A stretch of DNA of 64,000 nt from Candidatus Tayloriibacteriota bacterium (GTDB taxonomy: Bacteria > Patescibacteriota > Minisyncoccia > Phycocordibacterales > PALSA-1337): positions 597 through 64,596 of the forward strand of contig JBAXUB010000005.1 in assembly GCA_037129895.1 (NCBI GenBank). Reading direction: 5' to 3'. Positions 16 through 57,971 of this stretch are shown here, in pieces. Made by a program: the position numbers and the translations under genes. The notes below the pieces were generated by a model, which worked only from the letters and a program-made list of their open reading frames with translations, made no database searches and was not told the DNA's origin. Every line of letters starts with the position of its first letter. Position 1 is the stretch's first letter.

Positions 16-3000
16 ATGACTTCATCTGGTTTTGCTGTATTTGTAAGTGGATCCGCAAGTTTAACTATCAATAATGGTACCAATACGGCTATTGATCAGA
101 ACACCTCCAGTGGACAGGCTGTACGATGGGGTTCAACGGGGACCCTGTCTATTACTGGTAACATTGTAGGCGCCAGTGGAACGGGATATGCTATTCGTTT
201 TACAACAGCACCTGCATCAGCAACTATAAATGGAAACATAACTTATGGAGGGACATCGTCAAACTTCATTGATCTTTCTGGAAGTACCCTCACTATCAAC
301 GGCTCAGTTACTAATTCTTCATCAGGGAGTACGCTGGCTCCTGGTTTAGGTACTATTATTATAAACGGTTCAGTCACCAATTCTTCTACAGGTAAAGGTG
401 TATATGTGACTGGCTCTGCAAATCTCACAATCGCTAATGGTACTGACACAGCCATAGATGTAAATTCTTCAAGCGGAGTAACTAGTGCAGGTGTGTATTG
501 GTCATCAACGGGAACATTATCTATTACCGGCAATATTATTGGTGCTTCCGGAACTGGCGTTGCTATAAATATTTTGACAGCACCGACACTGGCTTCGGTA
601 ACTGGCAACGTTATATATGGAAGCACAGGGCAGGGTCTGATTAGGGCAGGTGCAGGTGGCTTAACTATCAACGGCTCAATCACTAATACATCTTCAGGTC
701 GCGCAATCAGTGTCAGTGGTTCGGCTAACCTAACTGTCTCTAACGGTACCAACACAGCCATCGATGAGAATACGTCAAGTGGATATGGTATATACTGGGA
801 TTCAACAGGAACTTTATCCATTACAGGAAACATAGTTGGAGCAAGTGGTACAGGAACTGCTCTTTATATCCGCACGGCACCAACGTCAGCAAGTTTAACT
901 GGTAGTGTTAACTATGGAAGTACAAATACAAGTGGCTTGGTTCAAATTAACACCGGCTCTTTAGTGGTTAGCGGTGATATTTCAAAAACATCATCGGGAT
1001 ATGCTATTGGTATGCAGACTTCAGGTAATCTGATTATTTCCAGTGGTACTATAACGGGGACCTCAGTTTTTCTTTCAGGGATTGGTTCACTGACTATAAA
1101 CGGTGGTGCGGTCACGCTAGGAAATGCAAACACCTATACGGGAGGAACCATATTGAATGCGGGTAGCCTTACAATCGGCAAAAGCAGCACTGGTGCAGCA
1201 GGAAATGTTACTAATGGACCGGTAGGTACGAGTACGCTGACGCTGAACGGAGGAACTTTAAACTCGAGCGGCAACTATACGGTGAACAATGGAATCCTAA
1301 TAGCAGGTTCTACTAATGTTGGAGGGATAAACTCACTGACTCTTGGGGGAGCAATATCTGTAGGTGATAATATTTTGAATGTAACTAATACCGCTGGAAC
1401 AATAACCCTGAATGGTCCAATCAGTGGAACTGGAGGAATTACACTCTCTGGTACTGGCACATTGACACTTGGAGTAGATTATACTGCTGGCCCGATTTTA
1501 ATAACTGATACCACTGCGATTGCTAAAACATTTGCCGGAGGCGGACATTCATTCGGCAACCTTACCGTTTCTGGAGATAATGTTATTATTACCGGCAATA
1601 ATACTATTAGCACGTTGGCGGTCAATACCGCGGGACTTACTAATGGACTTAAGCTGGCAAGCGGTTCTACACAAACTATTTCGAATCTTACGACCAATGG
1701 ATCTGCAGGAAATCTTGCTAAACTAGTTGCCTCCACAACAGGTAGTACAGCAACTCTTTCTAAATCAAGTGGTTTAATTTCTGTTGATTATATGTCAATT
1801 AAAGACTCTACCGCTAACGGAGGGGCCTCGTGGAATGCAGGTGTTAATAGTGTAAATGTTTCAGGTAATTCAGGATGGTTATTTTCATTACCCCCTTCAA
1901 ATTTGACAGTATCGACTGACCTTCCAAGTTTGGTTTCAACGTCAACAATGATATTAAATGGTTCTATTACAGTCGACGGTACTGCTTCATCGACCCTACG
2001 AGGATTCGCTTGGGGTACATCATCTAATCTTACGACTGGTACAGCCACTACAACAGAGAGCGGCACTTTCGGCGTTTCTTCATTTTCCACTTCAACTATT
2101 GTATTTATCCCAAATACGACTTACTATTTTCGCGCATACGCGGGAAGTTCACAGGGAACAACAACTGGTTCAATTCTTTCCACAACAACGCTTCCTTGGA
2201 ACGTGCCTGATGCGCCTACTATTGGCACAGTTGCGACATCTTCTCCAAATAAGGCTACGATTCCTTTTACTCCTGCAGGAAATGGCGGTTCCCCTGTTCT
2301 CTATTATTTAGCATCTTCAACCCCAGGGAATATTATGGCGACGAGTACCGTCTCACCTATTACCGTCAGTGGACTCACAAATGGTACCTCGTACACTTTT
2401 AAAGTTTATGCAGTGAATGCTGTAGGTACTAGTACTCCTAGCTCTGTTTCAAATGCTGTTATACCAAATGCTTCTTACGCTCGAAGTACATGGCGGACTG
2501 AAGAAGGTGCGACAGTAGGACCTCAGGTTGTGACAAACGGCTCATTTGCAGATAGTACGGGTTGGATTATACCCACAGGCGGTTCAATCAGTGGTGGGAA
2601 AGCAACATGGACACAAAGTGGATCTTTCCGACAAAATGTAACACTTGACACTGATTCTTATTATGAATTTATCTATACTGTCTCTGACTATACTTATGGA
2701 GCTATTCATGTTCAAGGGTGGAACGAAAGATCTGCTGATAGATATGGTCCAGGAACATTTAGAGATATTATATATTTTCCGACCGGATCATCCATGTTTC
2801 TTATCAATGGGTCAGATACATTTTCAGGGTCTGTTTCTTACATTTCTGTTCGTAAGATAACACCAGGAATTGCCAACTGGAATCCTAGAGTTGTGGCAAT
2901 TACAGGTGACTCAATTGCACAACATCAGGCAGTAATGAATCCCGATACATATCCTGGCAATACTACTTATGGATTTTCTCTCGCACAGGACGGAATTACT

Positions 3001-5592
3001 CCCGTTGACTGCGCCTTGGGAAATACAACCTTTGCTTGGGCTCTGTCGACCGGAATTCCATGCGCGATAGCTACCGGTGCCAGGACTATCATTATTCACG
3101 ATGGTATTAATGACATAGTGCAAGGCAGAACTTGGGACCAGGCACTTTCTGATCTAAACGCAATCCGTGCATTAGTTACGACACAAGATTTATTTGTAGA
3201 TGAAATTCTACCCAGAACGACTGGTAATGATGCGCAGGCAGCCACTATTCGAACATGGAACGCAAATCTGGATGCCTGGTCTGCAGCCAATAACGCACAT
3301 TTTATCCGTAGCCACGATATTATGGGCAAAATCAGAGCATCGACTGGACTACTGGACGACCTTGGTTTCGACACTGCGGATGGTGTGCATCCGGCTACTG
3401 GTGGTAGCTATGTCCTATGGCATTTGTGGTTCGATGCTCTGGAAGCTGTTTATGGATATCCTATCAAAACAACGTGGACAGTCACTGCTAGTACTGGAAC
3501 AGGCGGATCGATCAGTCCTGCTGGAGTTACGAATATTGGAGAGGGAACGGATCAAACGTTTATAGTGACTCCAAGTGACTCATATACAGCAGAAGATATT
3601 CTAGTTGATGGAGTAAGTGTAGGTACGACTTCATTATCGTATACATTTACAAATGTTATAGCGGATCATACGATTGATGTTAGCTTTCAATCTCAAAATA
3701 GTATTCCGGCATCCCCTGTATCAATCTCCGCAGCCACTTCCACCTCCGGTCAAGCCACTGTCTCTTTCACTCCAAGCTCCAATGGCGGTTCTGCCATCCT
3801 TTACTATTTAGCTTCCTCAACTCCAGGAAACTTCACTGCCACATCGACAGGATCTCCCATCGTTGTCGCTGGTCTTACTAACGGTACCTCATATACCTTT
3901 GCTGTGTATGCTGTGAATGCTTTAGGAACCAGCACATCTTCAAGTGATTCAAATGCAGTGGTACCGATCGGTCTTCCTACTGCCCCAACAGACGTAACAG
4001 CTACAGCAGGCAACACTCAAGTAGTTATCAATTTCAGTGCCCCAGGTTCAAATGGCGGCAGTGCCATTACCGGATATACCGTGACATCGAGTCCTTCTGG
4101 AGGCATTGATACAAATGCTGGCGGAACTGCGCTTACGCATACCGTCACAAGTCTTACTAACGGTATCTCGTACACCTTTACTGTAACTGCAACAAACGTG
4201 GTTGGTACAGGAAGTGCTTCAAGTCCTTCATCTTCAGTCACTCCTTCAACTGTTGCTGCCGTTTCAACAAACGTGGTTACTAGTATAGCTTCTACTAGCG
4301 CCACCGTGAGTGGTTCGATCACTTCAACGGGTGGGTCTGACGCAAGCCAGCATGGCTTTGCATACGGCACTGTTGCTAACCTCTCAACCGTGACTGCAAC
4401 TACCACTCTAGGGTCTCAAACTGGTACAGGCACGTTCACAAGCTTTGTGACTGGTCTAACAGCCAATACCACATACTATGTCCGTGCCTATGCTGTAAAT
4501 GCCTCAGGTACAACAACTGGTTCAATCATTTCCTTCCTAACTCTTCCTGCTATTCCGACTGTGACCACACAAGCTCCGACAGCTGGCTCAGGCATATACT
4601 TCACTGCTAACGGCAATATCACTGCAACTGCCGTGAACGCTACTGTTCGAGGTTTCGTCTACGGCACTACGAATACATACGGAGCGACAACTACGGAGAA
4701 TGGTTCATTCACTACAGGCGCATATACTGCCACGATTTCTGGTCTTGCTTGTAACACGCTATATCATGTCAAGTCCTATGCATTAAATACCGGAGGTACT
4801 GGCTATGGTTCTGATCAGACTATTACAACTGATGTTTGTACCAAACCAACAGTTGCCACTTCTACTCCTACAGGAATCACTACAACTGGAGCTACCTTGA
4901 ATGGTTCTATCACAGCCGACAACAATGCTTCATCTACAGTTGAAGGTTTCAATTGGGGTAATGATACGAATTATGGCCAGACGGCTTCGACAAATGGTAC
5001 ATTCGGCACTGGCTCATTCTCACAGACATTAAGCGGTCTAACATGCAACGCCACATATCACTACCAAGTTTTTGCTACAAATTATGCGGGCCAAGGCACT
5101 TCGGGTGACGAGATATTCAGCACATCAGCATGTTCTGTAACTCCTACACCTGCGGTACAAAGTTCTAGTTCAGGTGGAGGAGGAAGTGCTTCAAGCCGAG
5201 TCAACAATCTGATAGCAATGGGTAATTACACACTAGCGCAACAGATAGCTAAACAATTTGGAATCATAATCCTGACCCAGTCTTTGCTAAAAGAAAATTT
5301 GCCAGTTTCGAAATCGTCGCAAACATTTACAAAAACTTTGAAACTTGGAATGACTAATAGTGATGTAAAAAGATTACAAATATTCTTAAATACGCAAGGC
5401 TTCATTGTTGCAAAGCAAGGTGCCGGTTCTCTCGGACATGAGACAATGTATTTCGGACAGGCTACGAAAGCTGCTCTGAAGAAGTTTCAGTTAGCCTACA
5501 GGAAGGAAATACTTGATCCGCAGGGATTGAAGAGTCCGACGGGGCTGTTTGCATCAGGCTCTATGAAAGTTGCAAATGGACTATTAAAATAA
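16..5592 (+). CDS. Giant (1858 aa) surface protein with repeated beta-strand adhesin-like repeats, fibronectin-III-like repeats, an embedded SGNH/GDSL-hydrolase-like segment and a C-terminal peptidoglycan-binding domain. The 5' end may be incomplete.
   Basis: The ORF is uninterrupted and carries ANTYTGGT-type beta-strand repeats. Repeated YAVNA.GTS FN3-like units follow. An ITGDSIA ... DGVHP segment near 2880-3480 resembles an SGNH esterase. The C-terminus has a PG_binding_1-like stretch (TNSDVKRLQIFLNTQGF...ATKAALKKFQ). An in-frame stop sits 3 nt upstream of the ATG at 16, and there is no signal peptide at this start. Confidence 0.7.
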   Translation: MTSSGFAVFVSGSASLTINNGTNTAIDQNTSSGQAVRWGSTGTLSITGNIVGASGTGYAIRFTTAPASATINGNITYGGTSSNFIDLSGSTLTINGSVTNSSSGSTLAPGLGTIIINGSVTNSSTGKGVYVTGSANLTIANGTDTAIDVNSSSGVTSAGVYWSSTGTLSITGNIIGASGTGVAINILTAPTLASVTGNVIYGSTGQGLIRAGAGGLTINGSITNTSSGRAISVSGSANLTVSNGTNTAIDENTSSGYGIYWDSTGTLSITGNIVGASGTGTALYIRTAPTSASLTGSVNYGSTNTSGLVQINTGSLVVSGDISKTSSGYAIGMQTSGNLIISSGTITGTSVFLSGIGSLTINGGAVTLGNANTYTGGTILNAGSLTIGKSSTGAAGNVTNGPVGTSTLTLNGGTLNSSGNYTVNNGILIAGSTNVGGINSLTLGGAISVGDNILNVTNTAGTITLNGPISGTGGITLSGTGTLTLGVDYTAGPILITDTTAIAKTFAGGGHSFGNLTVSGDNVIITGNNTISTLAVNTAGLTNGLKLASGSTQTISNLTTNGSAGNLAKLVASTTGSTATLSKSSGLISVDYMSIKDSTANGGASWNAGVNSVNVSGNSGWLFSLPPSNLTVSTDLPSLVSTSTMILNGSITVDGTASSTLRGFAWGTSSNLTTGTATTTESGTFGVSSFSTSTIVFIPNTTYYFRAYAGSSQGTTTGSILSTTTLPWNVPDAPTIGTVATSSPNKATIPFTPAGNGGSPVLYYLASSTPGNIMATSTVSPITVSGLTNGTSYTFKVYAVNAVGTSTPSSVSNAVIPNASYARSTWRTEEGATVGPQVVTNGSFADSTGWIIPTGGSISGGKATWTQSGSFRQNVTLDTDSYYEFIYTVSDYTYGAIHVQGWNERSADRYGPGTFRDIIYFPTGSSMFLINGSDTFSGSVSYISVRKITPGIANWNPRVVAITGDSIAQHQAVMNPDTYPGNTTYGFSLAQDGITPVDCALGNTTFAWALSTGIPCAIATGARTIIIHDGINDIVQGRTWDQALSDLNAIRALVTTQDLFVDEILPRTTGNDAQAATIRTWNANLDAWSAANNAHFIRSHDIMGKIRASTGLLDDLGFDTADGVHPATGGSYVLWHLWFDALEAVYGYPIKTTWTVTASTGTGGSISPAGVTNIGEGTDQTFIVTPSDSYTAEDILVDGVSVGTTSLSYTFTNVIADHTIDVSFQSQNSIPASPVSISAATSTSGQATVSFTPSSNGGSAILYYLASSTPGNFTATSTGSPIVVAGLTNGTSYTFAVYAVNALGTSTSSSDSNAVVPIGLPTAPTDVTATAGNTQVVINFSAPGSNGGSAITGYTVTSSPSGGIDTNAGGTALTHTVTSLTNGISYTFTVTATNVVGTGSASSPSSSVTPSTVAAVSTNVVTSIASTSATVSGSITSTGGSDASQHGFAYGTVANLSTVTATTTLGSQTGTGTFTSFVTGLTANTTYYVRAYAVNASGTTTGSIISFLTLPAIPTVTTQAPTAGSGIYFTANGNITATAVNATVRGFVYGTTNTYGATTTENGSFTTGAYTATISGLACNTLYHVKSYALNTGGTGYGSDQTITTDVCTKPTVATSTPTGITTTGATLNGSITADNNASSTVEGFNWGNDTNYGQTASTNGTFGTGSFSQTLSGLTCNATYHYQVFATNYAGQGTSGDEIFSTSACSVTPTPAVQSSSSGGGGSASSRVNNLIAMGNYTLAQQIAKQFGIIILTQSLLKENLPVSKSSQTFTKTLKLGMTNSDVKRLQIFLNTQGFIVAKQGAGSLGHETMYFGQATKAALKKFQLAYRKEILDPQGLKSPTGLFASGSMKVANGLLK

Positions 5593-5597
5593 CAGCT

Positions 5598-6167
5598 ATG
5601 AACGATGACCAATCTCAAGATACACCAGTAACAGCTGAAATAGCCCAGACTCCAGAAATACCCACTTCTAACCAACCGACAGCATCGGAACCTGCCGATA
5701 TGCCCCCAGAGGCCCCAGAATTGCCCACAAACGCTTCAACAAACGTTCCTGTAGAAAGTCAAAATGGAGCAGTAAATACGTCAGAAAGCGAGGTGCCAGA
5801 ATCATCAAATGAGGCTCCAATTCCAGAACCTGTCCAGCCAGTTCCAACGGAATCTGCGCCGTCCGCGCCGGCGCCAGTGACACCGCCAGTACCACAACGC
5901 CAATCGCCGGCGCAACAAGATCAAACCGGATTCATCCGCGCACTGTTAGCGAAAGCTCAAGCTAAAATCCAGTCAAACAAACAGAAGAAGTTCGACAAGA
6001 TCATTTTATTCGCACAGAAAAAGAAAATCGTAGCCAATGAAGACATTCAACTTCTTTTGCATGTCTCAAGTGCTACTGCGACGAGATATTTGGTCAAATT
6101 AGTTCAGCAAGATCATCTATATCGCGTAGGGAATCCACGCGATGCTAAATATCAATTCCTACGTTAA
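5598..6167 (+). CDS. Small protein with an acidic Pro-rich N-terminus and a C-terminal winged-helix-like domain. It is a paralog of 57444..57971.
   Basis: It starts 5 nt after the giant gene stop. The C-terminal ~70 aa (ATATRYLVKLV...PRDAKYQ) is conserved with the protein at 57444..57971. Confidence 0.6.
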   Translation: MNDDQSQDTPVTAEIAQTPEIPTSNQPTASEPADMPPEAPELPTNASTNVPVESQNGAVNTSESEVPESSNEAPIPEPVQPVPTESAPSAPAPVTPPVPQRQSPAQQDQTGFIRALLAKAQAKIQSNKQKKFDKIILFAQKKKIVANEDIQLLLHVSSATATRYLVKLVQQDHLYRVGNPRDAKYQFLR

Positions 6168-6174
6168 AAATGTC

Positions 6175-6203
6175 TGTGGCTCATATCCACCAATTGAGCC
6201 ACA
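6175..6203. repeat. Small palindromic hairpin element (TGTGGCTCA-N11-TGAGCCACA), copy 1 of 3
   Basis: It has a perfect 9-bp stem. Related copies lie at 6430..6458 and 57980..58008. Confidence 0.6.
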
Positions 6204-6233
6204 TGTGTTTCTGATTTATCACTACGCTCCGCC

Positions 6234-6406
6234 GAGAAGCGGCCGACTTCCGCTTCTCTCACTAACAGTTGTTCGCATCCAGAGGATGTCTGTATGGCGG
6301 AGCACTCCACGGTTGCGATTAGCAACGGTGGAAAGTGCGAGAGCCATTCGGACATCCGATGGGTGCGCCATGAACTCAATCAGAAGCGGAAGTGGGCCGC
6401 TTCGAA
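6234..6406. repeat. ~175-bp intergenic repeat (family C) with hairpins at both ends, copy 1 of 3
   Basis: It begins with GAGAAGCGGxCGAC..CGCTTCTCTCAC and ends with GAAGCGGAAGTGGGCCGCTTCGA. Copy 51521..51695 is homologous along the whole length, and copy 58018..58162 shares the termini. Confidence 0.6.
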
Positions 6407-6429
6407 CCGCGCGATTGTGATAGAATGGT

Positions 6430-6458
6430 TGTGGCTCAAATGGTGGAATTGAGCCACA
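6430..6458. repeat. Palindromic hairpin element, copy 2 (identical to 57980..58008)
   Basis: TTGTGGCTCAAATGGTGGAATTGAGCCACA occurs at both places. Confidence 0.6.
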
Positions 6459-6509
6459 TCGAACCCGCCCCCAAAAACCACATTCCACCGCACGACCAAA
6501 ACAAATAGT

Positions 6510-6559
6510 GAGGGCGGACGGAGTCCTTCCCCCACACCCCCAGTCCTCCGTCCGCCCTC
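6510..6559. repeat. GC-rich hairpin with a 14-bp perfect stem (GAGGGCGGACGGAG / CTCCGTCCGCCCTC) and a C-rich loop (CCCCCACACCCCC)
   Basis: The inverted repeat was read directly. The loop motif recurs in reverse complement in the repeat B hairpin at 52004..52048. Confidence 0.5.
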
Positions 6560-6754
6560 TCCACCTTTTTGTGATTTCAAAGAAAACAGCGTCGCGCAGC
6601 GACTCCGTATTTCATTCACAGAGAAGTCACGCATCAGGATTTTCAGCGAAATAAGTTCGAACTTCAAGTAAAAACTGCCGCAAAAAAAATGAGCGAGCTT
6701 GCGAGCGAATGTTTTTTGCGTGAGAGAGCGACGCGACTGCTCGCGTCGCGTGAA

Positions 6755-6855
6755 GGGATTCGAAGAGGTTCTCCCATATTTTCGAGACCCCGAAGCTTTA
6801 GCGGAGGGGTAGAGAAAATGGGAAACCTGTACTGAAGCTGTAAGCTTCGAATCCC
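6755..6855. repeat. ~100-nt imperfect long inverted repeat (GGGATTCGAAG ... CTTCGAATCCC) with nested inner stems. It may be a structured RNA or a DNA element.
   Basis: The outer arms are 11 bp and perfect. The inner arms (ggttctcccatattttc / gagaaaatgggaaacc) are complementary but imperfect. Confidence 0.4.
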
Positions 6856-6871
6856 TTCCTCTCCGCAAAAG

Positions 6872-6886
6872 TTGCCAAATTGGCAA
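6872..6886. promoter_or_regulatory. Perfect 15-bp palindrome TTGCCAAATTGGCAA upstream of the wHTH gene, a candidate operator (copy 1)
   Basis: An identical palindrome sits at 11792..11806 in the duplicated cassette. It is followed by a second palindrome ATACCGCAGAA.(A/C)TGC(A/G)GTAT. Confidence 0.4.
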
Positions 6887-6960
6887 GATTCAACCTTTAG
6901 AAAATACCGCAGAACCGTGCAGTATTTCGTTTTCCACTCACATAGTGATTCCTGCTCAAG

Positions 6961-7278
6961 ATGCTGAAAGTTGTCGTGTGTGGCAAACCAAGTAAACAGA
7001 TGTCCACACCTTTCGTACCACAGGTGGTACGTTATACTACGTACCTTTCTATGCCCCAATTATTGCAACCCCTTGAACCAAATGATACAGAGAAGGCCGT
7101 CATCCACAAAGTGTGTATGGGGCTGATAAAGTACTTTAGCACTCCCGAAGGAGTAGAGGTGGGGAATAGTCAAGGTGAGCTCAGGTGTGGCGAAAGAGGG
7201 TATGGTGTTATGAGGATTCATAAAAAACAGCACAGAGGGTTTTCCTCTGCGCCGATGTGCTGCCAACGTCGAATTTAA
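6961..7278 (+). CDS. Divergent copy of a small LexA-N-terminal-like wHTH protein. It may be degenerate.
   Basis: Its C-terminal third is homologous to 11866..12186, but the N-terminal part is unrelated at DNA level. Its 3' end overlaps the hairpin terminator of the convergent small gene. Confidence 0.3.
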   Translation: MLKVVVCGKPSKQMSTPFVPQVVRYTTYLSMPQLLQPLEPNDTEKAVIHKVCMGLIKYFSTPEGVEVGNSQGELRCGERGYGVMRIHKKQHRGFSSAPMCCQRRI

Positions 7279-7288
7279 TCGCAAACAC

Positions 7289-7450
7289 TCATGTGATTAG
7301 TAGTTGAACTGCTGCTTTGACAAGTAACAGTGCTACGGCCGCCGTCATAAGACCAATGATGATGCCAACTTTCTGTCCTCGGTCAAATGCATGTTGGCGA
7401 TTGAGTAATTCCTGGCTATCGCCAGCGGTTTGAATGCAGTTATCTTCCAT
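7289..7450 (-). CDS. Small 53-aa protein with a C-terminal transmembrane helix (MEDNCIQTAGDSQELLNRQHAFDRGQKVGIIIGLMTAAVALLLVKAAVQLLIT). It is a paralog of 12440..12613.
   Basis: Translated by hand. It falls below the 60-aa ORF-track cutoff. The two copies differ mostly by conservative substitutions. A hairpin plus T-run terminator follows on the minus strand at ~7225-7250. Confidence 0.5.
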   Translation of the reverse strand: MEDNCIQTAGDSQELLNRQHAFDRGQKVGIIIGLMTAAVALLLVKAAVQLLIT

Positions 7451-7581
7451 AAGTACTCCAAGTTGTTAATGTTGCTGTGGATTCTGTCCTCTAACTATAT
7501 ATTACGCGCTTTATACGTTAACGCAAGAACACAACAGGCTGTTGTAATCTTTGTGAGTTTGTGCGATACTTGACAAATCAC

Positions 7582-7653
7582 CGCGGGGTAGGGTAATGGT
7601 AACCCACGAGGCTCATAACCTCGGATATGTCGGTTCGACTCCGGCCCCCGCAA
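7582..7653 (+). tRNA. Initiator tRNA-fMet (anticodon CAT)
   Basis: It was folded by eye into a cloverleaf with a TTCGACT T-loop and a CTCATAA anticodon loop. It has a C1:A72 mismatch, and its termini (CGCGGGG...CCGGCCCCCGCAAC) closely match E. coli initiator tRNA. CCA is not encoded. Confidence 0.8.
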
Positions 7654-7715
7654 CAAGTATTGACTTTTCTAATAAATCATGTAACTGTATAGCCAGAAAA
7701 TCTTTGACAATCTAT

Positions 7716-8063
7716 ATGGATAAAAACATGAACACAACAAGGCAATTCCAACGCACAATCGAAGATTTCGTGTGCGAAAACTGCGATCTGCAGGTAAAAG
7801 GCAACGGTTACACTAACCACTGCCCTCGATGTTTATGGAGTAAACACGTTGACATCAATCCTGGCGACCGCATGGCAAAGTGTGGCGGAATGATGGAACC
7901 TATTGCCATCGAATCAAAAGATGGCGGGTATATCATCGTTCATCGGTGTGTAAAATGCGGATACGAGAAAAGGAATAAAAAGTCGGAGGAAGATAACTTC
8001 GAAGCTATTCTTAAACTCTCTAGCCGTCCTCTGCAATCAACAATTAACAAGAAAGGAAAATAG
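7716..8063 (+). CDS. RNHCP-domain zinc-ribbon protein (~115 aa)
   Basis: It contains a YTNHCPRC motif plus several CxxC pairs. The ORF-track start at 7596 would overlap the tRNA, so the start was moved to the internal ATG at 7716. Confidence 0.55.
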   Translation: MDKNMNTTRQFQRTIEDFVCENCDLQVKGNGYTNHCPRCLWSKHVDINPGDRMAKCGGMMEPIAIESKDGGYIIVHRCVKCGYEKRNKKSEEDNFEAILKLSSRPLQSTINKKGK

Positions 8064-8067
8064 CCTC

Positions 8068-9480
8068 GTGAAAACGAATCTATCAAATGAATCATGGTCG
8101 CCTGTTGCGACTGTGCATTGCAATTATCGTTCACAAGGAAGGCGTGAGGACGGTAAATACGTTCTTCACGATGCCATTCCACACCTCTGTCATATCGAAT
8201 TGACATATGCGTGCAACGAGAAGTGCATCTTCTGTTACAATCCCGAACGAGCAAAACTGGGCGATCTATCAACGATTGATCAGCTTGTTCGTTCCATCGC
8301 GGTGAGTCAGATACCGCATGTATATCTGATAGGTGGCGAGCCAAGCTTACTGCCTGTCGAGAAGCTCAACGAATATATTGATCTTCTCTCTCCTTCCTCA
8401 TCCGTTACGATCGTAACTAATGGCCTAAAGCGGCTAGATGGTATCTCGAGCAAGCTCGCTTGTTTCGGAGTTCCGATTCATGGGGCGAATGCCAAAACCC
8501 ATGAATTTCTCAATCAGTCGCCAGGTAGTTTTGAGAAAACACTTGAAACAATCAGGTGTTATGTGGGCGAAGGTCATGATGTGCGATGCATACCAGTTCT
8601 CACTGGTTATAATCATGACCAGATGTATGACATCATCGGCATTGCGGCAGGTCTCGGTATGGAGTCGATTTACATCGACCGTTATGAAGATGGAGGTATT
8701 GGCGCGGTCAACTCCCGCGGTTATACTTTGAAGCCGACAAGCGAGCAGTTTCATATTGCTGTAGGACAAATTGTCCAGGCCAAGCACGATTTTGCCGTCT
8801 TTGATGGAAAGGTCGGGTTCGGTACAGCTATTCCGTACTGCTTGGATGAACGGATGATCATCGAGGGTATCACATCAAATTGCGGAGTTGGTACATACTT
8901 CTGCGCGATTAACCCCAAGGGTGAATTTCGAATGTGCAATCAGTCGCAACTTGTTTTTGGTAATGTCATGAAAGAGCCAATCGAGACGATCTGGAACAAG
9001 CCAGCACTCGATATCTTCCGTGATCTATCCTGGGTCGGCGAGCCGTGTAAATCGTGCGAATTATTGCTTGACTGTACGGGCGGCTGCAAAGTTGACTCGA
9101 ACTGTTCAGACAGATTCTGTATCGACTATGCGGTTCGCGGACTTTCCAAGCCTGTCGCTGAATTGGTAACAAAGGTCAAGCATTGTCAGTTGGCTGAAGG
9201 ATACCCGGAAAGTTACCGAAACTTTCGACCAAACAGATACATGAAACTTACAACACGTTACCCTGAGAAATTCCTGGTTACGCGGTATCAGACGGTAAAA
9301 CTGGATGAGATGGCACTGGAAATGGCTCAGGTCATTATCAGTGAAGCATTGATTGGTGAACGTGAGCTAATCGCTCGGTTTTCTAAATCAGTCGAGGAAC
9401 ATGAAATACGGTTATTCGTGAGCAAGATGCTTCAAGTGAATGCTCTTGATCTCGTGAAGGAGGTGCAACATGCAACTTAG
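8068..9480 (+). CDS. Radical SAM protein with a C-terminal SPASM/twitch-like Cys-rich domain
   Basis: It has a CNEKCIFC (CX3CX2C) motif, a GGEPS glycine-rich motif, and C-terminal cysteines (CGVGTYFC...CKSCELLLDCTGGC). The ORF track begins it at a GTG start. Confidence 0.75.
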   Translation: MKTNLSNESWSPVATVHCNYRSQGRREDGKYVLHDAIPHLCHIELTYACNEKCIFCYNPERAKLGDLSTIDQLVRSIAVSQIPHVYLIGGEPSLLPVEKLNEYIDLLSPSSSVTIVTNGLKRLDGISSKLACFGVPIHGANAKTHEFLNQSPGSFEKTLETIRCYVGEGHDVRCIPVLTGYNHDQMYDIIGIAAGLGMESIYIDRYEDGGIGAVNSRGYTLKPTSEQFHIAVGQIVQAKHDFAVFDGKVGFGTAIPYCLDERMIIEGITSNCGVGTYFCAINPKGEFRMCNQSQLVFGNVMKEPIETIWNKPALDIFRDLSWVGEPCKSCELLLDCTGGCKVDSNCSDRFCIDYAVRGLSKPVAELVTKVKHCQLAEGYPESYRNFRPNRYMKLTTRYPEKFLVTRYQTVKLDEMALEMAQVIISEALIGERELIARFSKSVEEHEIRLFVSKMLQVNALDLVKEVQHAT

Positions 9481-10957
9481 TGAAATTCATTGGGAAATCA
9501 CCAACATGTGTAATCTGGGGTGCAAACACTGTCTGCCGATGTCTGGTCGTGCACGAGAAAATGAACTTACGACCGAGGAAGCAATGGTTGCTTTGGTGGC
9601 ATTCCAAGCCGCAGGAGCTTCTAGAATCTGCTTAACCGGTGGAGAACCATTCAGTCGCTCAGACATCCTTGATTTGCTTGAAAGATCATTTGCGTTGGGG
9701 TTGAAGTCATCTGTAATAACCAATGCTACATTGCTCCCAAAGGCAACCTTGGAAACGATTAAACGCTTGGGCGTTGATCTTGGAATCAGTCTCGATGGTG
9801 CAGACCAAGCAACCAATGACGCCATTCGTGGTGATGGAAGCTACAAATGTATCATTGAGACTCTCATACAATGCCGGGCGTTGGGCATTTCAACAACTCT
9901 CTACGTCACGGTTTCAGCAATCAACATCGAACATCTGAATGCGTTCGCCAAGCTCGCAGTCGAGTATGGTTGTAATAGTATTCATTTCAACGAGATAACT
10001 ATTTCCGGTCGTGCCTATCATTTTTCGGATGAACTTAAACTCTCCGAAGATCAGAAAAAGCATTTGCCAGAAATGGTTGTCAAAATAGCCTCCGATATAT
10101 TCGGGGAAATTCTCTCTGATGCAGACGAGCATTGCTGGGTCGATGGTGTGACACTCAACATGACGGCCGACGGAAACCTCTATGTTTGCAGTGAAGTTTT
10201 CCAACGCCGGCCCGATCTTGCAATCGGCAATATTAGATCGTTTGTGTTCGAAACATTGTTGGAGCAAACCGCTTCGGCTTATTCTGGACATGAATATAAA
10301 TGTTGCTACAGTGTGTGTGCGAGCAAACATGTGATATTTGTCGGAAACATAGCCACTGGGTGTGCGTTTGCAAAGCAGAAACCATTCATCGAAACTCTTC
10401 CGCAACTATACGACGTTCTCGGTGAACTTTATCCGAGGATGGAGCTGGATTGCCGTGAATGTTCTGATCCTGATTGTATGGGTTATGTGTGGCTACTCAA
10501 AAAAGAAGCTGCACATCTGTACGAACAAGGTGTTCCGCTTGTTCAAGTGAATAATGGGCCAACCTTTATTCATTCGTTTCCCGTGACTGCGCAAGGGGTG
10601 CCCGATTTATCAATTCGGTATCCTCCATGCAGTCAGTTGTGTACAGACAGTAGAAGATGTAGTATCTACAAAGATCGTCCTTTGGCATGTCGTCTTTACC
10701 CGCTTGGGCTTGAGACAGAAGCAGACGGAACGATTGTATGGGCACTACATCTGGATTGTCTGCATGTTCGAAGACTGGAAGAGCGCGGTTTGCTTCCAGA
10801 ACTCGAATGTCGTGTTCTGAAAATCATCGACGAGATTTCGCCGAAATTGTTGGAAGAAATAGTCGAGACTTATCGCGCAGTCGATGCGATTTCTTCTTTC
10901 CCTGACGGTGATAACAAGTACAAACCCCTACGAAAGGTGAGTTATGTCAAAATGTAA
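9470..10957 (+). CDS. Radical SAM/SPASM protein with a C-terminal YkgJ-like Cys-rich extension
   Basis: It has CNLGCKHC (CX3CX2C) 12 aa from the N-terminus and a GGEPF motif. Mid-region cysteines are present. The C-terminus has CRECSDPDC...CSQLC...CSIYKDRPLACRLYP, which resembles the PF03692 CxxCxxCC zinc/iron-chelating domain. It overlaps the upstream rSAM gene by 11 nt. Confidence 0.75.
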   Translation: MQLSEIHWEITNMCNLGCKHCLPMSGRARENELTTEEAMVALVAFQAAGASRICLTGGEPFSRSDILDLLERSFALGLKSSVITNATLLPKATLETIKRLGVDLGISLDGADQATNDAIRGDGSYKCIIETLIQCRALGISTTLYVTVSAINIEHLNAFAKLAVEYGCNSIHFNEITISGRAYHFSDELKLSEDQKKHLPEMVVKIASDIFGEILSDADEHCWVDGVTLNMTADGNLYVCSEVFQRRPDLAIGNIRSFVFETLLEQTASAYSGHEYKCCYSVCASKHVIFVGNIATGCAFAKQKPFIETLPQLYDVLGELYPRMELDCRECSDPDCMGYVWLLKKEAAHLYEQGVPLVQVNNGPTFIHSFPVTAQGVPDLSIRYPPCSQLCTDSRRCSIYKDRPLACRLYPLGLETEADGTIVWALHLDCLHVRRLEERGLLPELECRVLKIIDEISPKLLEEIVETYRAVDAISSFPDGDNKYKPLRKVSYVKM

Positions 10958-11099
10958 AGCAGTTCTTGACGGTGACAAGATCACCGAAATCTGTGTCAAG
11001 ACAAAACCGGTCAAGAAAGCTGAGAAACGAGAGTTGAAAGATTCGAATGTTGTCGAAGCAAAACCGACCGATTCGTCCCGGCAACAGACTGGAACATAG
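10944..11099 (+). CDS. 51-aa Lys-rich peptide with 2 Cys (MSKCKAVLDGDKITEICVKTKPVKKAEKRELKDSNVVEAKPTDSSRQQTGT). It may be a precursor or partner peptide of the rSAM pair.
   Basis: Translated by hand. Its ATG overlaps the 3' end of the rSAM gene by 14 nt. It is followed directly by a rho-independent terminator and falls below the ORF-track cutoff. Confidence 0.35.
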   Translation: MSKCKAVLDGDKITEICVKTKPVKKAEKRELKDSNVVEAKPTDSSRQQTGT

Positions 11100-11123
11100 A
11101 TGTGACAGATCTTGTGTTCACGA

Positions 11124-11152
11124 GTGGCATTCATAGGAGTGCCACTTTTTTA
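11124..11152 (+). terminator. Rho-independent terminator (GTGGCA-loop-TGCCAC + T6)
   Basis: A hairpin followed by TTTTTT was read directly from the sequence. Confidence 0.6.
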
Positions 11153-11181
11153 TTATCCAAATAAGTTATACTATAGACAAC

Positions 11182-11739
11182 ATGACAGGTATTGAAAAAT
11201 ATTCGTCAGATTGGTCAAAGAAATATAAGCTTGAATCAGAAAAGATTAGAGCTGTCTTGGGTGATGTCGTAAAAGACATCCAACATATCGGAAGTACCTC
11301 CATTCCTAGAATGTTCGCAAAGCCATTGATAGATATTGGTGTCTTAGTGAACATAATCGATGATATAGATTTTTTTGTACAAAAACTTGAGAATTTAGAA
11401 TATTCATATAAACCGGATATGTCATCCGCGGAACGAATCTTTTTTCGAAAGGGCGATCCTGTGGAGTATCATTTGTCCATAGCCTGTCCGAGACATACCT
11501 TCTGGAAACGGCAGATTGATTTTAGGGATTATTTGAGAGAGCACCCTGAATTTGTCGAGGAATATAACGCACTTAAGCTAAAGAATCTAAAAATTACCCC
11601 TGAAGAGGATCTTTCCGATCTATCAAGAAGTAAAATATATAACCAAGGCAAGGAAGATTTTGTAAATAGGGTCCTAAAATTGGCAGAAAACGAGAATATT
11701 CACAAAATATCAGATTCTTCACAGATAATCGTTAAATAA
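11182..11739 (+). CDS. GrpB-family protein (UPF0157, nucleotidyltransferase-like)
   Basis: It has an HIGSTSIP...AKPLIDI motif and the length typical of GrpB. Confidence 0.6.
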   Translation: MTGIEKYSSDWSKKYKLESEKIRAVLGDVVKDIQHIGSTSIPRMFAKPLIDIGVLVNIIDDIDFFVQKLENLEYSYKPDMSSAERIFFRKGDPVEYHLSIACPRHTFWKRQIDFRDYLREHPEFVEEYNALKLKNLKITPEEDLSDLSRSKIYNQGKEDFVNRVLKLAENENIHKISDSSQIIVK

Positions 11740-11791
11740 TCAATAGACGATTTAATTCCATTCGGACATCGTCCCAAGCTCCCCGCAAAAA

Positions 11792-11806
11792 TTGCCAAAT
11801 TGGCAA
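11792..11806. promoter_or_regulatory. Palindrome TTGCCAAATTGGCAA, candidate operator (copy 2)
   Basis: It is identical to 6872..6886 and lies ~60 bp upstream of the wHTH gene. Confidence 0.4.
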
Positions 11807-11865
11807 GATTCAACCTCTAGAAAATACCGCAGAATCATGCGGTATTTTCGTTTTCCATTCAAATA

Positions 11866-12186
11866 GTGATTCCTGCTCAAGACGATGAAGACACGGCAAG
11901 ATTTGCCGCTTTGAGCGAAACAGAAAAGAAAGCGCTCATATTCATTGAAAAAGAGTCCTTATACTACAGATCACCGTCAGTGCGAGTGCTAGCAAATCAT
12001 GTTGGCCTCAAGTCATCACGATCTGGTGTGAGGATAATTAGAAAGTTGGTTGCGGATGGTTTTGTGGTGAAGAATAAGCGAGGTGAGCTCAAGTGTAGTG
12101 AAAGAGGGTATGGTGTTATGTGTATTTATAAAAAACAGCGCAGAGGGTTTTCCTCTGCGCCGATGAGCTGCCAATGTTGCATTTAA
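11866..12186 (+). CDS. Small wHTH protein resembling the LexA N-terminal DNA-binding domain, with no peptidase domain
   Basis: ETEKKALIFIEKESLYYRSPSVRVLANHVGLKSSRSGVRIIRKLVADGFV follows the LexA_DNA_bind pattern. Confidence 0.5.
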   Translation: MIPAQDDEDTARFAALSETEKKALIFIEKESLYYRSPSVRVLANHVGLKSSRSGVRIIRKLVADGFVVKNKRGELKCSERGYGVMCIYKKQRRGFSSAPMSCQCCI

Positions 12187-12439
12187 TCGCAAACACTCAC
12201 TGATTTTGCTGATTCCTCTTGGAAGTAAGGTTCTACTGCTCGCAGTGGCCCAGCAAGAATTCTTCTGAAGAAGGATCTAGACGGTGGGGGATTGCCACTC
12301 ATGTGAATTGCGATGATTCCTAAGTCGTTTACTGGGACTTTGTATGAGTCGGGTCCGAATTGTTCAAGTGACCTTCGACCCTGTCTTATCCGCCTTTTTC
12401 GTGTCATGTATGTTTTCATAATTGATCGTCGATCTACCA

Positions 12440-12613
12440 TCAATGCACAATGAACGTATTTAGCAGTTGAACTACTACTTTGACGAGCAACAGTGCTGCT
12501 ACCGTCGTCATAATACCGATGACAAAGCCAACTTTCTGACCTCCGTCAAATGCATGCTGACGGTTGATTAGTTCCTGGTCATCGCCAGTGGTTTGAATGC
12601 AGTTATCTTCCAT
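12440..12613 (-). CDS. Small 57-aa membrane protein, paralog of 7289..7450
   Basis: Hand translation gives MEDNCIQTTGDDQELINRQHAFDGGQKVGFVIGIMTTVAALLLVKVVVQLLNTFIVH. A hairpin plus T6 terminator follows on the minus strand at ~12140-12170. Confidence 0.5.
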   Translation of the reverse strand: MEDNCIQTTGDDQELINRQHAFDGGQKVGFVIGIMTTVAALLLVKVVVQLLNTFIVH

Positions 12614-12739
12614 AAGTACTCCAAGTTGTTAATATTGCTGTGGTTTCTGGCCTCTAACTATATATTACGCGCTTTATATGTTAATGCAAGAACACAACAG
12701 GCACTTGTCTTTGAGTTGTAGGAGGTATATAGTTGTTAT

Positions 12740-52236: not shown

Positions 52237-57390
<5,154 letters not shown>

Positions 57391-57443: not shown

Positions 57444-57971
57444 ATGTCAGATGATCAAAACCAAGATATAAATCCACAACAAGAGCCACCACAAAGCCCT
57501 GAAGCAGTCACAGATGAAGCACCTATTCAGCAAGCCGATTCTATACCTACCGATATGCCCCCTGTGGCCCCAGAAGCCCCTAAGGACGCTTCTACCTCTG
57601 TTCCTGTAGAAGATCAAAATGGAGCAAATAAGGATGAAAATCAAGTATCAGAATCTCCAGCTGTGACCGCGCCAGCGCCACTAACCTCGGCTACTCCACA
57701 AACGCAATCGCTGGCGCAACAAGATGAACGTGGATTCATCAAGAGCTTGCTTATTAAAGCTCAAGCTAAAATACAATTTAACAAACAAAGAAAGTTAGAA
57801 AAAATCATTCAGCTAGCACAAAAGAAAGGAATAATTACAAATGATGATGTACAAAAACTTTTGCATGTCTCTGATGCAACTGCAACCAGATATTTAGTAA
57901 AATTAGTAGAACAAGGTCGTCTGACTCGCTTAGGTTCACCACGCGATGCTAAATATCAAATTGTACGATAA
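57444..57971 (+). CDS. Small Pro-rich protein with a C-terminal winged-helix-like domain, paralog of 5598..6167
   Basis: It has the same architecture and a conserved C-terminus (ATATRYLVKLVEQGRLTRLGSPRDAKYQ). Confidence 0.6.
   Translation: MSDDQNQDINPQQEPPQSPEAVTDEAPIQQADSIPTDMPPVAPEAPKDASTSVPVEDQNGANKDENQVSESPAVTAPAPLTSATPQTQSLAQQDERGFIKSLLIKAQAKIQFNKQRKLEKIIQLAQKKGIITNDDVQKLLHVSDATATRYLVKLVEQGRLTRLGSPRDAKYQIVR

Follow-up and report, generated by a model that had tools for sequence, protein, structure and literature searches.

A putative radical-SAM peptide-maturation cassette with a conserved MSKC peptide in candidate phyla radiation bacteria and archaea

Which molecule would be modified by two adjacent radical S-adenosylmethionine (radical-SAM) enzymes whose only conserved neighbours are a small zinc-ribbon protein and a very short peptide? 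This question is raised by a four-gene cassette found in a stretch of 64,000 nucleotides (nt) from a Candidatus Tayloriibacteriota bacterium (contig JBAXUB010000005.1, positions 597 to 64,596; the whole stretch is hereafter called the window), in which a gene for an RNHCP-domain protein is followed by the genes of the radical-SAM proteins rSAM1 and rSAM2 and by a short open reading frame (ORF) of 51 residues. An earlier note on this DNA had described the arrangement as a candidate peptide or protein maturation cassette, in which either RNHCP or the 51-residue peptide could be modified. The present analysis supports a maturation function, with the short ORF conserved in 55 of 55 complete loci and both enzymes falling outside the cofactor-biosynthesis families, and the cassette is probably a radical-SAM peptide-maturation system of the RiPP (peptide made by ribosomes and then modified post-translationally) kind, acting on the short peptide, here called the MSKC peptide, as its putative substrate. 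All the features claimed by the note, namely tRNA-Met, RNHCP, the overlapping radical-SAM pair, the short ORF and the terminator, were found at the positions it had given, and those of the cassette itself are as follows (aa, amino acids):

7716..8063, plus strand, RNHCP-domain protein with a double zinc ribbon, accessory (PF12647, 1.4e-30; the start may be the ATG at 7728)
8068..9480, plus strand, rSAM1, 470 aa, GTG start (Radical_SAM 4.2e-15, SPASM 2.2e-9)
8212..8235, plus strand, CX3CX2C radical-SAM cluster motif of rSAM1 (C49, C53, C56), invariant in the alignment
8839..9120, plus strand, SPASM region of rSAM1 (PF13186, 2.2e-9), with invariant Cys columns
9205..9462, plus strand, C-terminal domain of rSAM1, a putative RiPP recognition element (RRE) or PqqD-like winged helix by AlphaFold2 (AF2) secondary structure
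9470..10957, plus strand, rSAM2, 495 aa, comprising radical-SAM, twitch-like partial SPASM and YkgJ-like Fe-S parts
9509..9532, plus strand, CX3CX2C motif of rSAM2 (C14, C18, C21), invariant
10133..10363, plus strand, twitch-like auxiliary region of rSAM2, Cx12Gx4C, with invariant C222, C240, C278 and C298
10388..10957, plus strand, YkgJ/COG0727-like Fe-S domain of rSAM2, aa 307-495 (PF03692)
10944..11099, plus strand, putative precursor peptide gene, 51 aa, overlapping the rSAM2 stop by 14 nt
10944..11006, plus strand, conserved 21-codon core of the peptide gene, MSKCKAVLDGDKITEICVKTK, compared across 56 distinct 21-mers

The spread of the cassette was assessed by a pattern scan with rSAM2 over one genome per species for 185,579 species, which returned 18 loci with a substantial match, and by a metagenome scan with an rSAM1 profile, which revealed 80 further loci. 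The 18 genome loci were spread over many phyla of the candidate phyla radiation (CPR), Woesearchaeota, one bin labelled Thermococci and one gut bin assigned to Firmicutes. Searches of the related loci with tblastn and motif scans demonstrated that the order RNHCP, rSAM1, rSAM2, peptide was kept nearly everywhere, and the domain E-values together with an arrangement conserved in about 100 loci ruled out a chance arrangement. Presence was counted only where the sequence reached 500 nt or more upstream of rSAM1 and 2300 nt or more downstream, which left 55 loci. The YkgJ-like C-terminal domain of rSAM2 and the MSKC peptide gene were present in every one of them (the peptide gene in 54 by script and in L138 by eye), and RNHCP was present in 46. 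A second radical-SAM domain was seen in 38, which is an undercount in a divergent clade; in L153, for instance, rSAM2 is split into a 296-aa radical-SAM protein and a 207-aa protein carrying the C-terminal domain. Natural fusions tie the components to one another: three (P0110, P0111 and P0220) join rSAM1 to the YkgJ-like domain without a second radical-SAM domain, and one (P0203) joins RNHCP, at the N-terminus, to rSAM1. On the basis of these counts and fusions, the invariant core consists of rSAM1, the YkgJ-like domain and the peptide; what is obligatory as a partner is the YkgJ-like domain, whereas the second radical-SAM domain is not. No conserved neighbour beyond the four cassette genes, such as a protease, a transporter or GrpB, was found in 19 loci.

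The short ORF turned out to be conserved at the protein level in orthologous loci (all 55), this conservation being confined to its first 21 residues. Their short consensus is MSKCKAVLDGxKITxIxVKxK, or MSKCKAVLD[GSA]xK[IV]xx[IL]xV[KR]xK with the alternatives; Met1, Ser2, Lys3, Cys4 and Asp9 are invariant among the 56 distinct 21-mers of the main family, and Lys12 is nearly so. The remaining tail is variable and hydrophilic, spans 0-35 residues and is absent from the shortest homologues, whose genes encode exactly 21 residues (L007, L141 and L150). Of the two cysteines pointed out in the earlier note, Cys4 is the invariant one, whereas the second lies at the highly variable position 17 and is Cys in only 3 of the 56 distinct homologues. 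The comparison of 64 distinct 63-nt gene starts gave entropies of 0.70, 0.48 and 1.37 for codon positions 1, 2 and 3, and a Shine-Dalgarno-like motif preceded 62 of these 64 starts; this codon-position variation and these ribosome-binding sites indicated that the short ORF is genuinely coding, strongly constrained and translated. The core has no aromatic residue, and its hydrophobic residues alternate about a D-G or D-S turn, a pattern suggestive of a beta-hairpin. Moreover, the peptide persists in the nine loci that lack RNHCP, and in those clades its gene is shifted to a position upstream of rSAM1.

Distant relatives were obtained by tracing stand-alone representatives of the YkgJ-like C-terminal domain (C-domain) back to their contigs. 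All the loci traced in this way combined an MSKC peptide with a gene for the C-domain and one for a radical-SAM/SPASM enzyme, to which other functions were added (ABC, ATP-binding cassette):

L169, peptide MSKCKAVALVRLVTLIRVLKRK, with an ABC exporter
L170/L171, peptide MSKCKGSISTKNVVKIRIIKKA, with an RNPP-type helix-turn-helix regulator and two ABC genes
L172, peptide MSKCKAVLDGQRVKSLKIKTK..., with two more radical-SAM genes, an RNHCP gene and an amidohydrolase
L173/L174, peptide MSKCNAVLNAERVESLEMESK..., with two methyltransferases

The MSKC tetrapeptide was the only peptide element universal across all clades. Within the main family, at least 13 loci other than the window carry, as an optional component, a B12-binding radical-SAM enzyme (PF02310 and PF04055). 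It is encoded, for example, at 1572-2897 on the minus strand of L099 (441 aa), and at varying positions in L006, L089, L092, L104, L117, L121, L127, L142, L143 and L156. In L099 this gene precedes a second peptide gene identical to the first, and in L092 and L104 a near-identical extra copy. A peptide that stays constant while the tailoring enzymes, exporters and regulators around it are mixed and matched is a hallmark of RiPP gene clusters, and it is this pattern that argues most strongly for the MSKC peptide as the substrate. The relatives bearing exporters and a quorum-type regulator also offer a natural comparison between intracellular and secreted versions.

The enzymes themselves are consistent with such a role. 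rSAM1 is the most conserved cassette protein, with a mean column identity of 67% across CPR and archaea and homologues in 413 database clusters, and it scored 56.8 bits against the Pfam Radical_SAM model (cut-off 29.5) and 37.9 bits against PF13186 SPASM (cut-off 21.5). The overlap of the two radical-SAM genes described in the earlier note amounts to 11 nt, and the cysteines of both N-terminal CX3CX2C motifs are invariant. The auxiliary-cluster cysteines that the note had attributed to both proteins held in full for rSAM1, whose invariant C258, C272, C290, C327, C330, C336, C340 and C351 are arranged as Cx12Gx4C ... Cx2Cx5Cx3C ... C; this arrangement contains the complete seven-cysteine SPASM motif (Cx9-15Gx4C ... 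Cx2Cx5Cx3C ... C), with C258 invariant in addition, and fits two auxiliary clusters. The claim held only in part for rSAM2, which gave a strong Radical_SAM match (1e-22, 81.5 bits against a cut-off of 29.5) and a weak SPASM match (E=0.015), and which is called twitch-like because only the first half of the SPASM motif is present; rSAM2 is 100% identical to a database protein listed under Candidatus Taylorbacteria. In comparisons with solved structures, the best sequence match of rSAM1 was PqqE (2e-14, profile-to-PDB) and its best folds by Foldseek were SkfB, SuiB, BlsE, anSME (anaerobic sulfatase-maturating enzyme), CteB and PqqE; rSAM2 matched SkfB best, both by sequence (1.7e-32) and by fold. 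Taking the two enzymes together, the closest relatives were SkfB, PqqE, SuiB and CteB by profile-to-PDB and SkfB, SuiB, CteB, anSME, PqqE and BlsE by Foldseek, most of which are peptide maturases.

The C-terminal part of rSAM1 may serve to hold the peptide. The AF2 model of the protein (pLDDT, the predicted local distance difference test, 86; pTM, the predicted template modelling score, 0.89) placed in residues 384-465 four strands, three helices and a further strand, the pLDDT exceeding 90 for most of this stretch, and an invariant TRYQT motif lies inside it. PqqD-like RREs are winged helices with three strands followed by three helices, and the predicted topology of the rSAM1 C-terminal domain fits this fold, which makes it a putative RRE.

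The C-terminal third of rSAM2 in the window is the YkgJ-like domain. The earlier note had recognized this cysteine domain on the second enzyme, and its presence was borne out: PF03692 (CxxCxxCC) matched rSAM2 at 2.2e-5 over the CSIYKDRPLACRLYP stretch, the 25.5 bits exceeding the cut-off of 23 marginally, and the domain occurred in all 55 loci. Its cysteines form a variant of the family motif, CxxCxxxxC plus four more invariant Cys (C328, C331, C336, C387, C397, C407 and C430 in total). Elsewhere it is found as a stand-alone protein of about 185 aa or fused to rSAM1; a search of 1.84 billion proteins gave 114 representatives at E<=1e-3, mostly stand-alone, and nearly all of them either of about 185 aa or fused to a radical-SAM protein. 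The C-domain, the peptide and the RRE-like domain were also scanned against NCBIfam, without a match.

Beside the gene content, conservation, fusions, coding signal and fold similarity set out above, we infer the substrate role of the peptide, the RRE role and every step of the chemistry. The trailing gene would make a short peptide whose functional part is the first 21 residues, a beta-hairpin by its residue pattern, and rSAM1, as the core enzyme, would grip this peptide through its C-terminal winged-helix, RRE-like domain. SAM would be cleaved at the CX3CX2C cluster of rSAM1, and the resulting radical, together with the two SPASM auxiliary clusters, would alter the peptide at, or close to, its invariant Ser2-Lys3-Cys4. 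The YkgJ-like Fe-S domain, as obligatory partner, might serve as a redox relay or a second catalytic site or, by analogy with FliB, might act on the conserved lysines. The SkfB-like radical-SAM domain of rSAM2, and elsewhere the B12 radical-SAM enzyme, would introduce optional further modifications, and RNHCP would be a frequent but dispensable metal-binding accessory. As no protease or exporter is encoded in the window, the product would probably stay in the cell as a modified peptide.

The type of modification can be narrowed by exclusion and analogy. The absence of aromatic residues from the core excludes Trp-, Tyr- and His-based cross-links as well as reactions of the PQQ (pyrroloquinoline quinone) and mycofactocin type, and the cassette of the window has no B12 domain. 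The single invariant Cys is then the evident reactive group, and together with the SkfB/CteB-like enzymes it favours a thioether cross-link with Cys4 as sulfur donor, a chemistry that is put forward as the best, though tentative, guess. The acceptor might be Asp9, placed in a ranthipeptide-like CX4D spacing, or, on the model of sactipeptides, a residue's alpha-carbon on the far side of the hairpin; the latter, unlike Asp9, would fit the observed variability of the peptide. A universal Cys4-Asp9 thioether was in fact weakened as a candidate by the distant clades, in which Asp9 is replaced by Asn in L173 and by other residues in L169 and L170, so this link cannot be the universal reaction.

Besides this loss of Asp9, several observations weigh against a RiPP-like maturation cassette. 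No leader peptidase or exporter was found in the window or in close relatives, which is unusual for a RiPP, and nearly the whole short peptide is conserved, unlike hypervariable RiPP cores, which brings it nearer to a cofactor precursor or a small subunit. The RRE assignment of the rSAM1 C-terminal domain follows from predicted topology: the Pfam PqqD model matched this domain in just 1 of 27 members (E=0.007), its profile reached only the BlaI winged helix in the PDB, weakly (E=0.45), and a hidden Markov model of the domain gave nothing significant among the ORFs of 62 other radical-SAM loci. As this support at the sequence level is weak, the RRE role is regarded as likely and not as proven. 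Finally, the top NCBIfam matches of rSAM1 include the non-peptide enzymes AhbD (heme b synthase) and NirJ2, with scores comparable to those of peptide maturases. The classification that the earlier note had proposed as a check was nevertheless favourable, as NCBIfam placed neither enzyme in a cofactor-biosynthesis family (cut-offs 265-650): the best score of rSAM1 was 65 bits, far under family cut-offs (500, for example), and that of rSAM2 was 117 bits, against MftC with a cut-off of 265. None of the cassette proteins reached the cut-off of any NCBIfam model.

The RNHCP protein is the other substrate that the earlier note had considered. On this reading, one of its residues would be modified by the radical-SAM enzymes, and the short ORF would act as a helper or regulator. 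RNHCP matches PF12647 with 105.5 bits (cut-off 24) and carries a strikingly invariant block, GYTNHCPxCLWSKHVDxNPGDR, in which the family motif [RT]NHCP takes the form TNHCP in the window; its adjacency to the enzymes in 46 of the 55 loci, its reappearance in the distant locus L172 and its single fusion to the N-terminus of rSAM1, in P0203, also speak for this substrate, although a permanent fusion between substrate and enzyme would be unusual. (A MAFFT alignment around P0203 misplaced stand-alone RNHCPs in the Cys-rich SPASM region and was not used for structure prediction.) As to the co-occurrence of RNHCP proteins with radical-SAM pairs, which the note had proposed as a check, the nine complete loci without RNHCP retain the peptide, and stand-alone RNHCPs are abundant, with at least 3968 database clusters of homologues against 413 for rSAM1. 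Three stand-alone RNHCPs on long contigs had no radical-SAM gene in the flanks examined, the one in L081 lying beside a nuclease gene, that in L083 having no related neighbour and that in L085 lying between rpsG and fusA. Moreover, the cassette copy is no specialised subtype, being 76-78% identical to the stand-alone P0241, with which it shares the invariant block and eight metal ligands. Because of these abundant stand-alone homologues and this lack of a special subtype, RNHCP appears by sequence comparison to be a general small metal-binding protein often recruited by the cassette system, possibly as an electron carrier, chaperone or docking module; its being the dedicated substrate is unlikely, and the peptide is by far the better of the two candidates. 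Alternatively, the enzymes could, like AhbD, NirJ, MoaA or BlsE, build or alter a small molecule of a cofactor or metabolite pathway, with the 21-residue product as a subunit, scaffold or regulator, and the unusually high conservation of the peptide, the window without protease or exporter, the heme b synthase and NirJ2 matches of rSAM1, and the presence of BlsE and viperin-like enzymes among the fold matches would agree with this. Such a function is improbable in view of scores far under the family cut-offs (65 against 500 bits), of the lack of other conserved pathway genes nearby, of the distant loci with exporters and an RNPP-type regulator, which are typical of peptide products, and of the extra peptide copies that follow the B12 radical-SAM gene in L099, L092 and L104.

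A related proposal keeps the peptide as substrate and has it cut up, by a housekeeping protease, into a small cofactor-like molecule derived from Ser-Lys-Cys, analogous to PQQ or mycofactocin. That only MSKC is invariant across all clades, that the conservation resembles that of PqqA or MftA, that rSAM1 is similar to PqqE and MftC, and that an amidohydrolase lies next to the L172 cassette would all suit a precursor of this kind. The CPR loci, however, have no dedicated peptidase, oxidase or other tailoring gene, a sporadic spread (18 loci in 185,579 species) argues against a central cofactor, and the exporters of the distant clades suggest an exported peptide there, which makes this route very improbable. 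Least probable, to the point of being scarcely credible, is an RNA-modification system in which RNHCP would be a nucleic-acid-binding module and tRNA-Met or another RNA the target: tRNA-Met does lie within a 3.6-kb module shared with close relatives, RNHCP is a zinc-ribbon protein and a stand-alone RNHCP occurs inside a ribosomal-protein/elongation factor G operon, but the tRNA precedes the cassette in just one of the 18 genome loci (L001), both enzymes belong to the SPASM/twitch group with peptide maturases as their best-matching solved relatives, and the conserved peptide gene would be left unexplained.

Returning to peptide maturation, close parallels are the sactipeptide and ranthipeptide systems (SkfA/SkfB, CteA/CteB and PapA/PapB), which likewise combine a SPASM/twitch radical-SAM enzyme with a short co-encoded Cys peptide; among solved structures, SkfB matches both enzymes of the window best, and CteB was also matched. 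PapB forms Cys-to-Asp thioethers and tolerates CX0-6D spacing (PMC9413430), a range that includes the CX4D of the window peptide, and the strand-turn-strand pattern suggested by the peptide sequence would resemble the sactipeptide hairpin. In contrast to the several cysteines of known precursors, the MSKC peptide has one conserved Cys, and its conserved part lies at the extreme N-terminus with no recognisable leader; moreover, the putative RRE is C-terminal in rSAM1 instead of N-terminal, and the CPR loci contain no protease or exporter. Obligatory YkgJ-like domain and RNHCP partners are not known from sactipeptide or ranthipeptide systems. The maturase models were not reached by rSAM1 and rSAM2, which scored 45.5 and 96.4 bits against StsB (cut-off 625) and 32 and 58 bits against SkfB (cut-off 300), and the score against AlbA was 30 bits (cut-off 850).

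Similarly, the PQQ (PqqA/PqqD/PqqE) and mycofactocin (MftA/MftB/MftC) pathways share with the cassette a very conserved peptide of about 20-30 residues, a radical-SAM/SPASM enzyme, a PqqD-type domain, which is putative here, and an intracellular product, which would also apply here. They differ in that the MSKC core has no Tyr or other aromatic residue, making Glu-Tyr and Val-Tyr chemistry impossible, and in that no PqqB/C/F or MftD/E/F genes lie near the cassette. The scores of rSAM1 and rSAM2 stayed below the cut-offs of PqqE (56.9 and 77.6 against 381 bits) and MftC (61 and 117 against 265 bits), and the peptide has neither the E-X3-Y motif of PqqA nor the C-terminal Gly-Val-Tyr of MftA. 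The tandem cassettes defined in silico by their context, SynChlorMet (ScmE/ScmF) and His-Xaa-Ser (HxsB/HxsC), also consist of an adjacent radical-SAM pair and a short peptide gene. ScmF, ScmE and HxsC were among the best NCBIfam matches, yet with 55-88 bits against cut-offs of 268-400, and the present system differs by its MSKC motif and by the second radical-SAM domain being dispensable while the YkgJ-like domain is not. As regards streptide-type systems (StrA/StrB/StrC, SuiA/SuiB), SuiB was among the top fold matches, and L170 and L171 combine an RNPP-family regulator, a radical-SAM/SPASM gene, a small peptide gene and ABC exporters; the lack of Trp in the core makes the Lys-Trp cross-link impossible, and the window has no regulator or exporter.

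The domain partner leads to a further comparison. FliB has a related Cys motif, and the [4Fe-4S] cluster that it binds is required for methylating lysine with SAM (PMC8598068); the rSAM2 C-domain passes the PF03692 cut-off in the presence of a peptide with an invariant Lys3 and a nearly invariant Lys12. The C-domain differs by its CxxCxxxxC motif with four more invariant Cys and forms a small family of its own, outside any NCBIfam family, so that a methylase role, suggested by analogy, is only a lead. The target motif of anaerobic sulfatase-maturating enzymes is C/S-x-P/A-x-R, from which the C-K-A-V-L of the peptide departs.

The general kind of system, a radical-SAM/SPASM enzyme with a probable RRE and a short peptide, is well known. 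The particular combination had been considered in the earlier note not to be a described RiPP class, and this stood: no curated family covered it, and literature searches on RNHCP, PF12647, the peptide motif and CPR radical-SAM RiPPs found no description of the cassette. The MSKC radical-SAM peptide family, mainly from CPR and DPANN, therefore does not appear to have been described. New features are an invariant MSKC core at the N-terminus with no leader in evidence, a COG0727-like Fe-S domain as obligatory partner, RNHCP as a recurrent one, a putative RRE at the C-terminus of its enzyme, a conserved cassette without protease or exporter genes and the CPR/DPANN distribution. It is a bolder and rather doubtful proposal that the MSKC peptide, rSAM1 and the YkgJ-like domain define a new class of radical-SAM-modified peptides native to CPR/DPANN, with a new chemistry centred on the invariant Ser-Lys-Cys and with a COG0727-type domain and often RNHCP as partners without precedent in peptide maturation; if it were true, the extreme conservation of the peptide and the lack of an exporter would imply an intracellular role in these symbionts of reduced genome, for example as a cross-linked micro-protein or a cofactor-like molecule, and not as an antibiotic. 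CPR bacteria and DPANN archaea have minimal genomes with few recognised biosynthetic systems, and here a compact cassette with many predicted Fe-S sites is kept nearly unchanged across many of their lineages. The conservation of the cassette, with a peptide as conserved as a cofactor precursor, suggests a specific function. The RNHCP and YkgJ/COG0727-like domains, both of unknown function, thereby gain a concrete, testable biochemical context, and the 21-residue putative substrate is a very small handle on what may be new radical-SAM chemistry.

The genomic setting of the cassette in the window includes three further features:

7559..11156, plus strand, module of 3.6 kb shared with loci L001 and L088 by blastn, from tRNA-Met to the terminator
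7582..7654, plus strand, tRNA-Met (CAT), initiator-like, with a C1xA72 mismatch and with A73 read directly from the sequence
11122..11153, plus strand, intrinsic terminator at the operon end, an 11-bp-stem hairpin (11122-11147) followed by a T-run

The terminator, which the earlier note had placed immediately after the short ORF as a hairpin and T-run, was picked up independently by a terminator scan, and the tRNA is called initiator-like because of its C1xA72 mismatch and A73. The module starts 23 nt upstream of the tRNA and is about 94% nucleotide-identical (blastn) to 3950-7558 of L001 and 2982-6590 of L088, the homology ending abruptly on both sides. The ORFs flanking the cassette in L001 had no counterpart within the whole 64-kb window, and, as the flanks of the window, L001 and L088 are unrelated, the module lies in differing immediate contexts among close relatives. 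In addition, the tRNA, the cassette and a GrpB gene lie between two direct-repeat copies (6852-7545 and 11772-12708) of about 700 nt, which match patchily, in three blocks of 86-91% identity. The unrelated flanks and this bracketing of the module and GrpB suggest, from sequence comparison, that tRNA-Met and cassette moved as one unit by recombination or transfer; no integrase or att-like tRNA fragment was found around the module. The position directly downstream of the initiator tRNA, remarked upon in the earlier note, is thus real in the window and not a general trait: besides the window, tRNA-Met lies upstream of the cassette only in L001 among the 18 genome loci. A functional linkage between tRNA and cassette was rejected for this reason, and the adjacency is regarded as incidental, with the tRNA outside the conserved cassette and travelling with the module in the window's own clade. 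GrpB (11182-11739) was likewise rejected as a cassette member, since it lies beyond the terminator and was undetected in the related loci searched. A phage origin or defence role was unsupported as well: one scan of viral contigs gave no orthologue, and the PADLOC anti-phage models showed only a partial, generic similarity to the radical-SAM core of viperins (pVip), with RNHCP, the peptide and GrpB giving no match.

Several minor observations were made around these elements. In contigs L085-L087 of an uncultured bacterium (about 4039-9464), the stand-alone RNHCP gene comes right after rpsL and rpsG, upstream of fusA, which hints at a translation-related or housekeeping role of RNHCP proteins apart from radical-SAM enzymes. 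In each copy of the direct repeat, a small hydrophobic ORF on the minus strand (7450-7289, 53 aa, and 12613-12440, 57 aa) precedes a strong terminator on that strand (7254-7228 and 12162-12136, respectively); the ORFs may encode small membrane proteins or toxin-like products, or the repeats may mark a recombination hotspot. The right copy also contains a 106-aa ORF (11866-12186), the N-terminal two thirds of which resemble a winged-helix DNA-binding domain without a Pfam match, and the left copy has unrelated sequence in place of this winged-helix-like part. Just upstream, 16-5592 encodes a repetitive Ser/Thr/Gly-rich ORF of 1858 aa, from its composition a probable surface protein; a weakly similar ORF lies upstream of the L001 cassette, with its best match in the window at about 53215-53631. 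The window also encodes, at 5598-6167 and 57444-57968, a pair of paralogues of about 189 aa that share 56% identity; in each, the N-terminus is disordered and rich in Pro/Glu, and the C-terminus has a weak MarR-like helix-turn-helix. Finally, the region 6175-6458 forms a near-perfect hairpin of about 284 nt with nested inverted repeats (6175-6203/6430-6458 and 6236-6257/6382-6403) and no Rfam family match or convincing ORF. Its predicted RNA folding energy is -164 kcal/mol (z = -14 relative to shuffled sequences), and the region may represent a structured non-coding RNA or else a palindrome resembling a miniature inverted-repeat transposable element.

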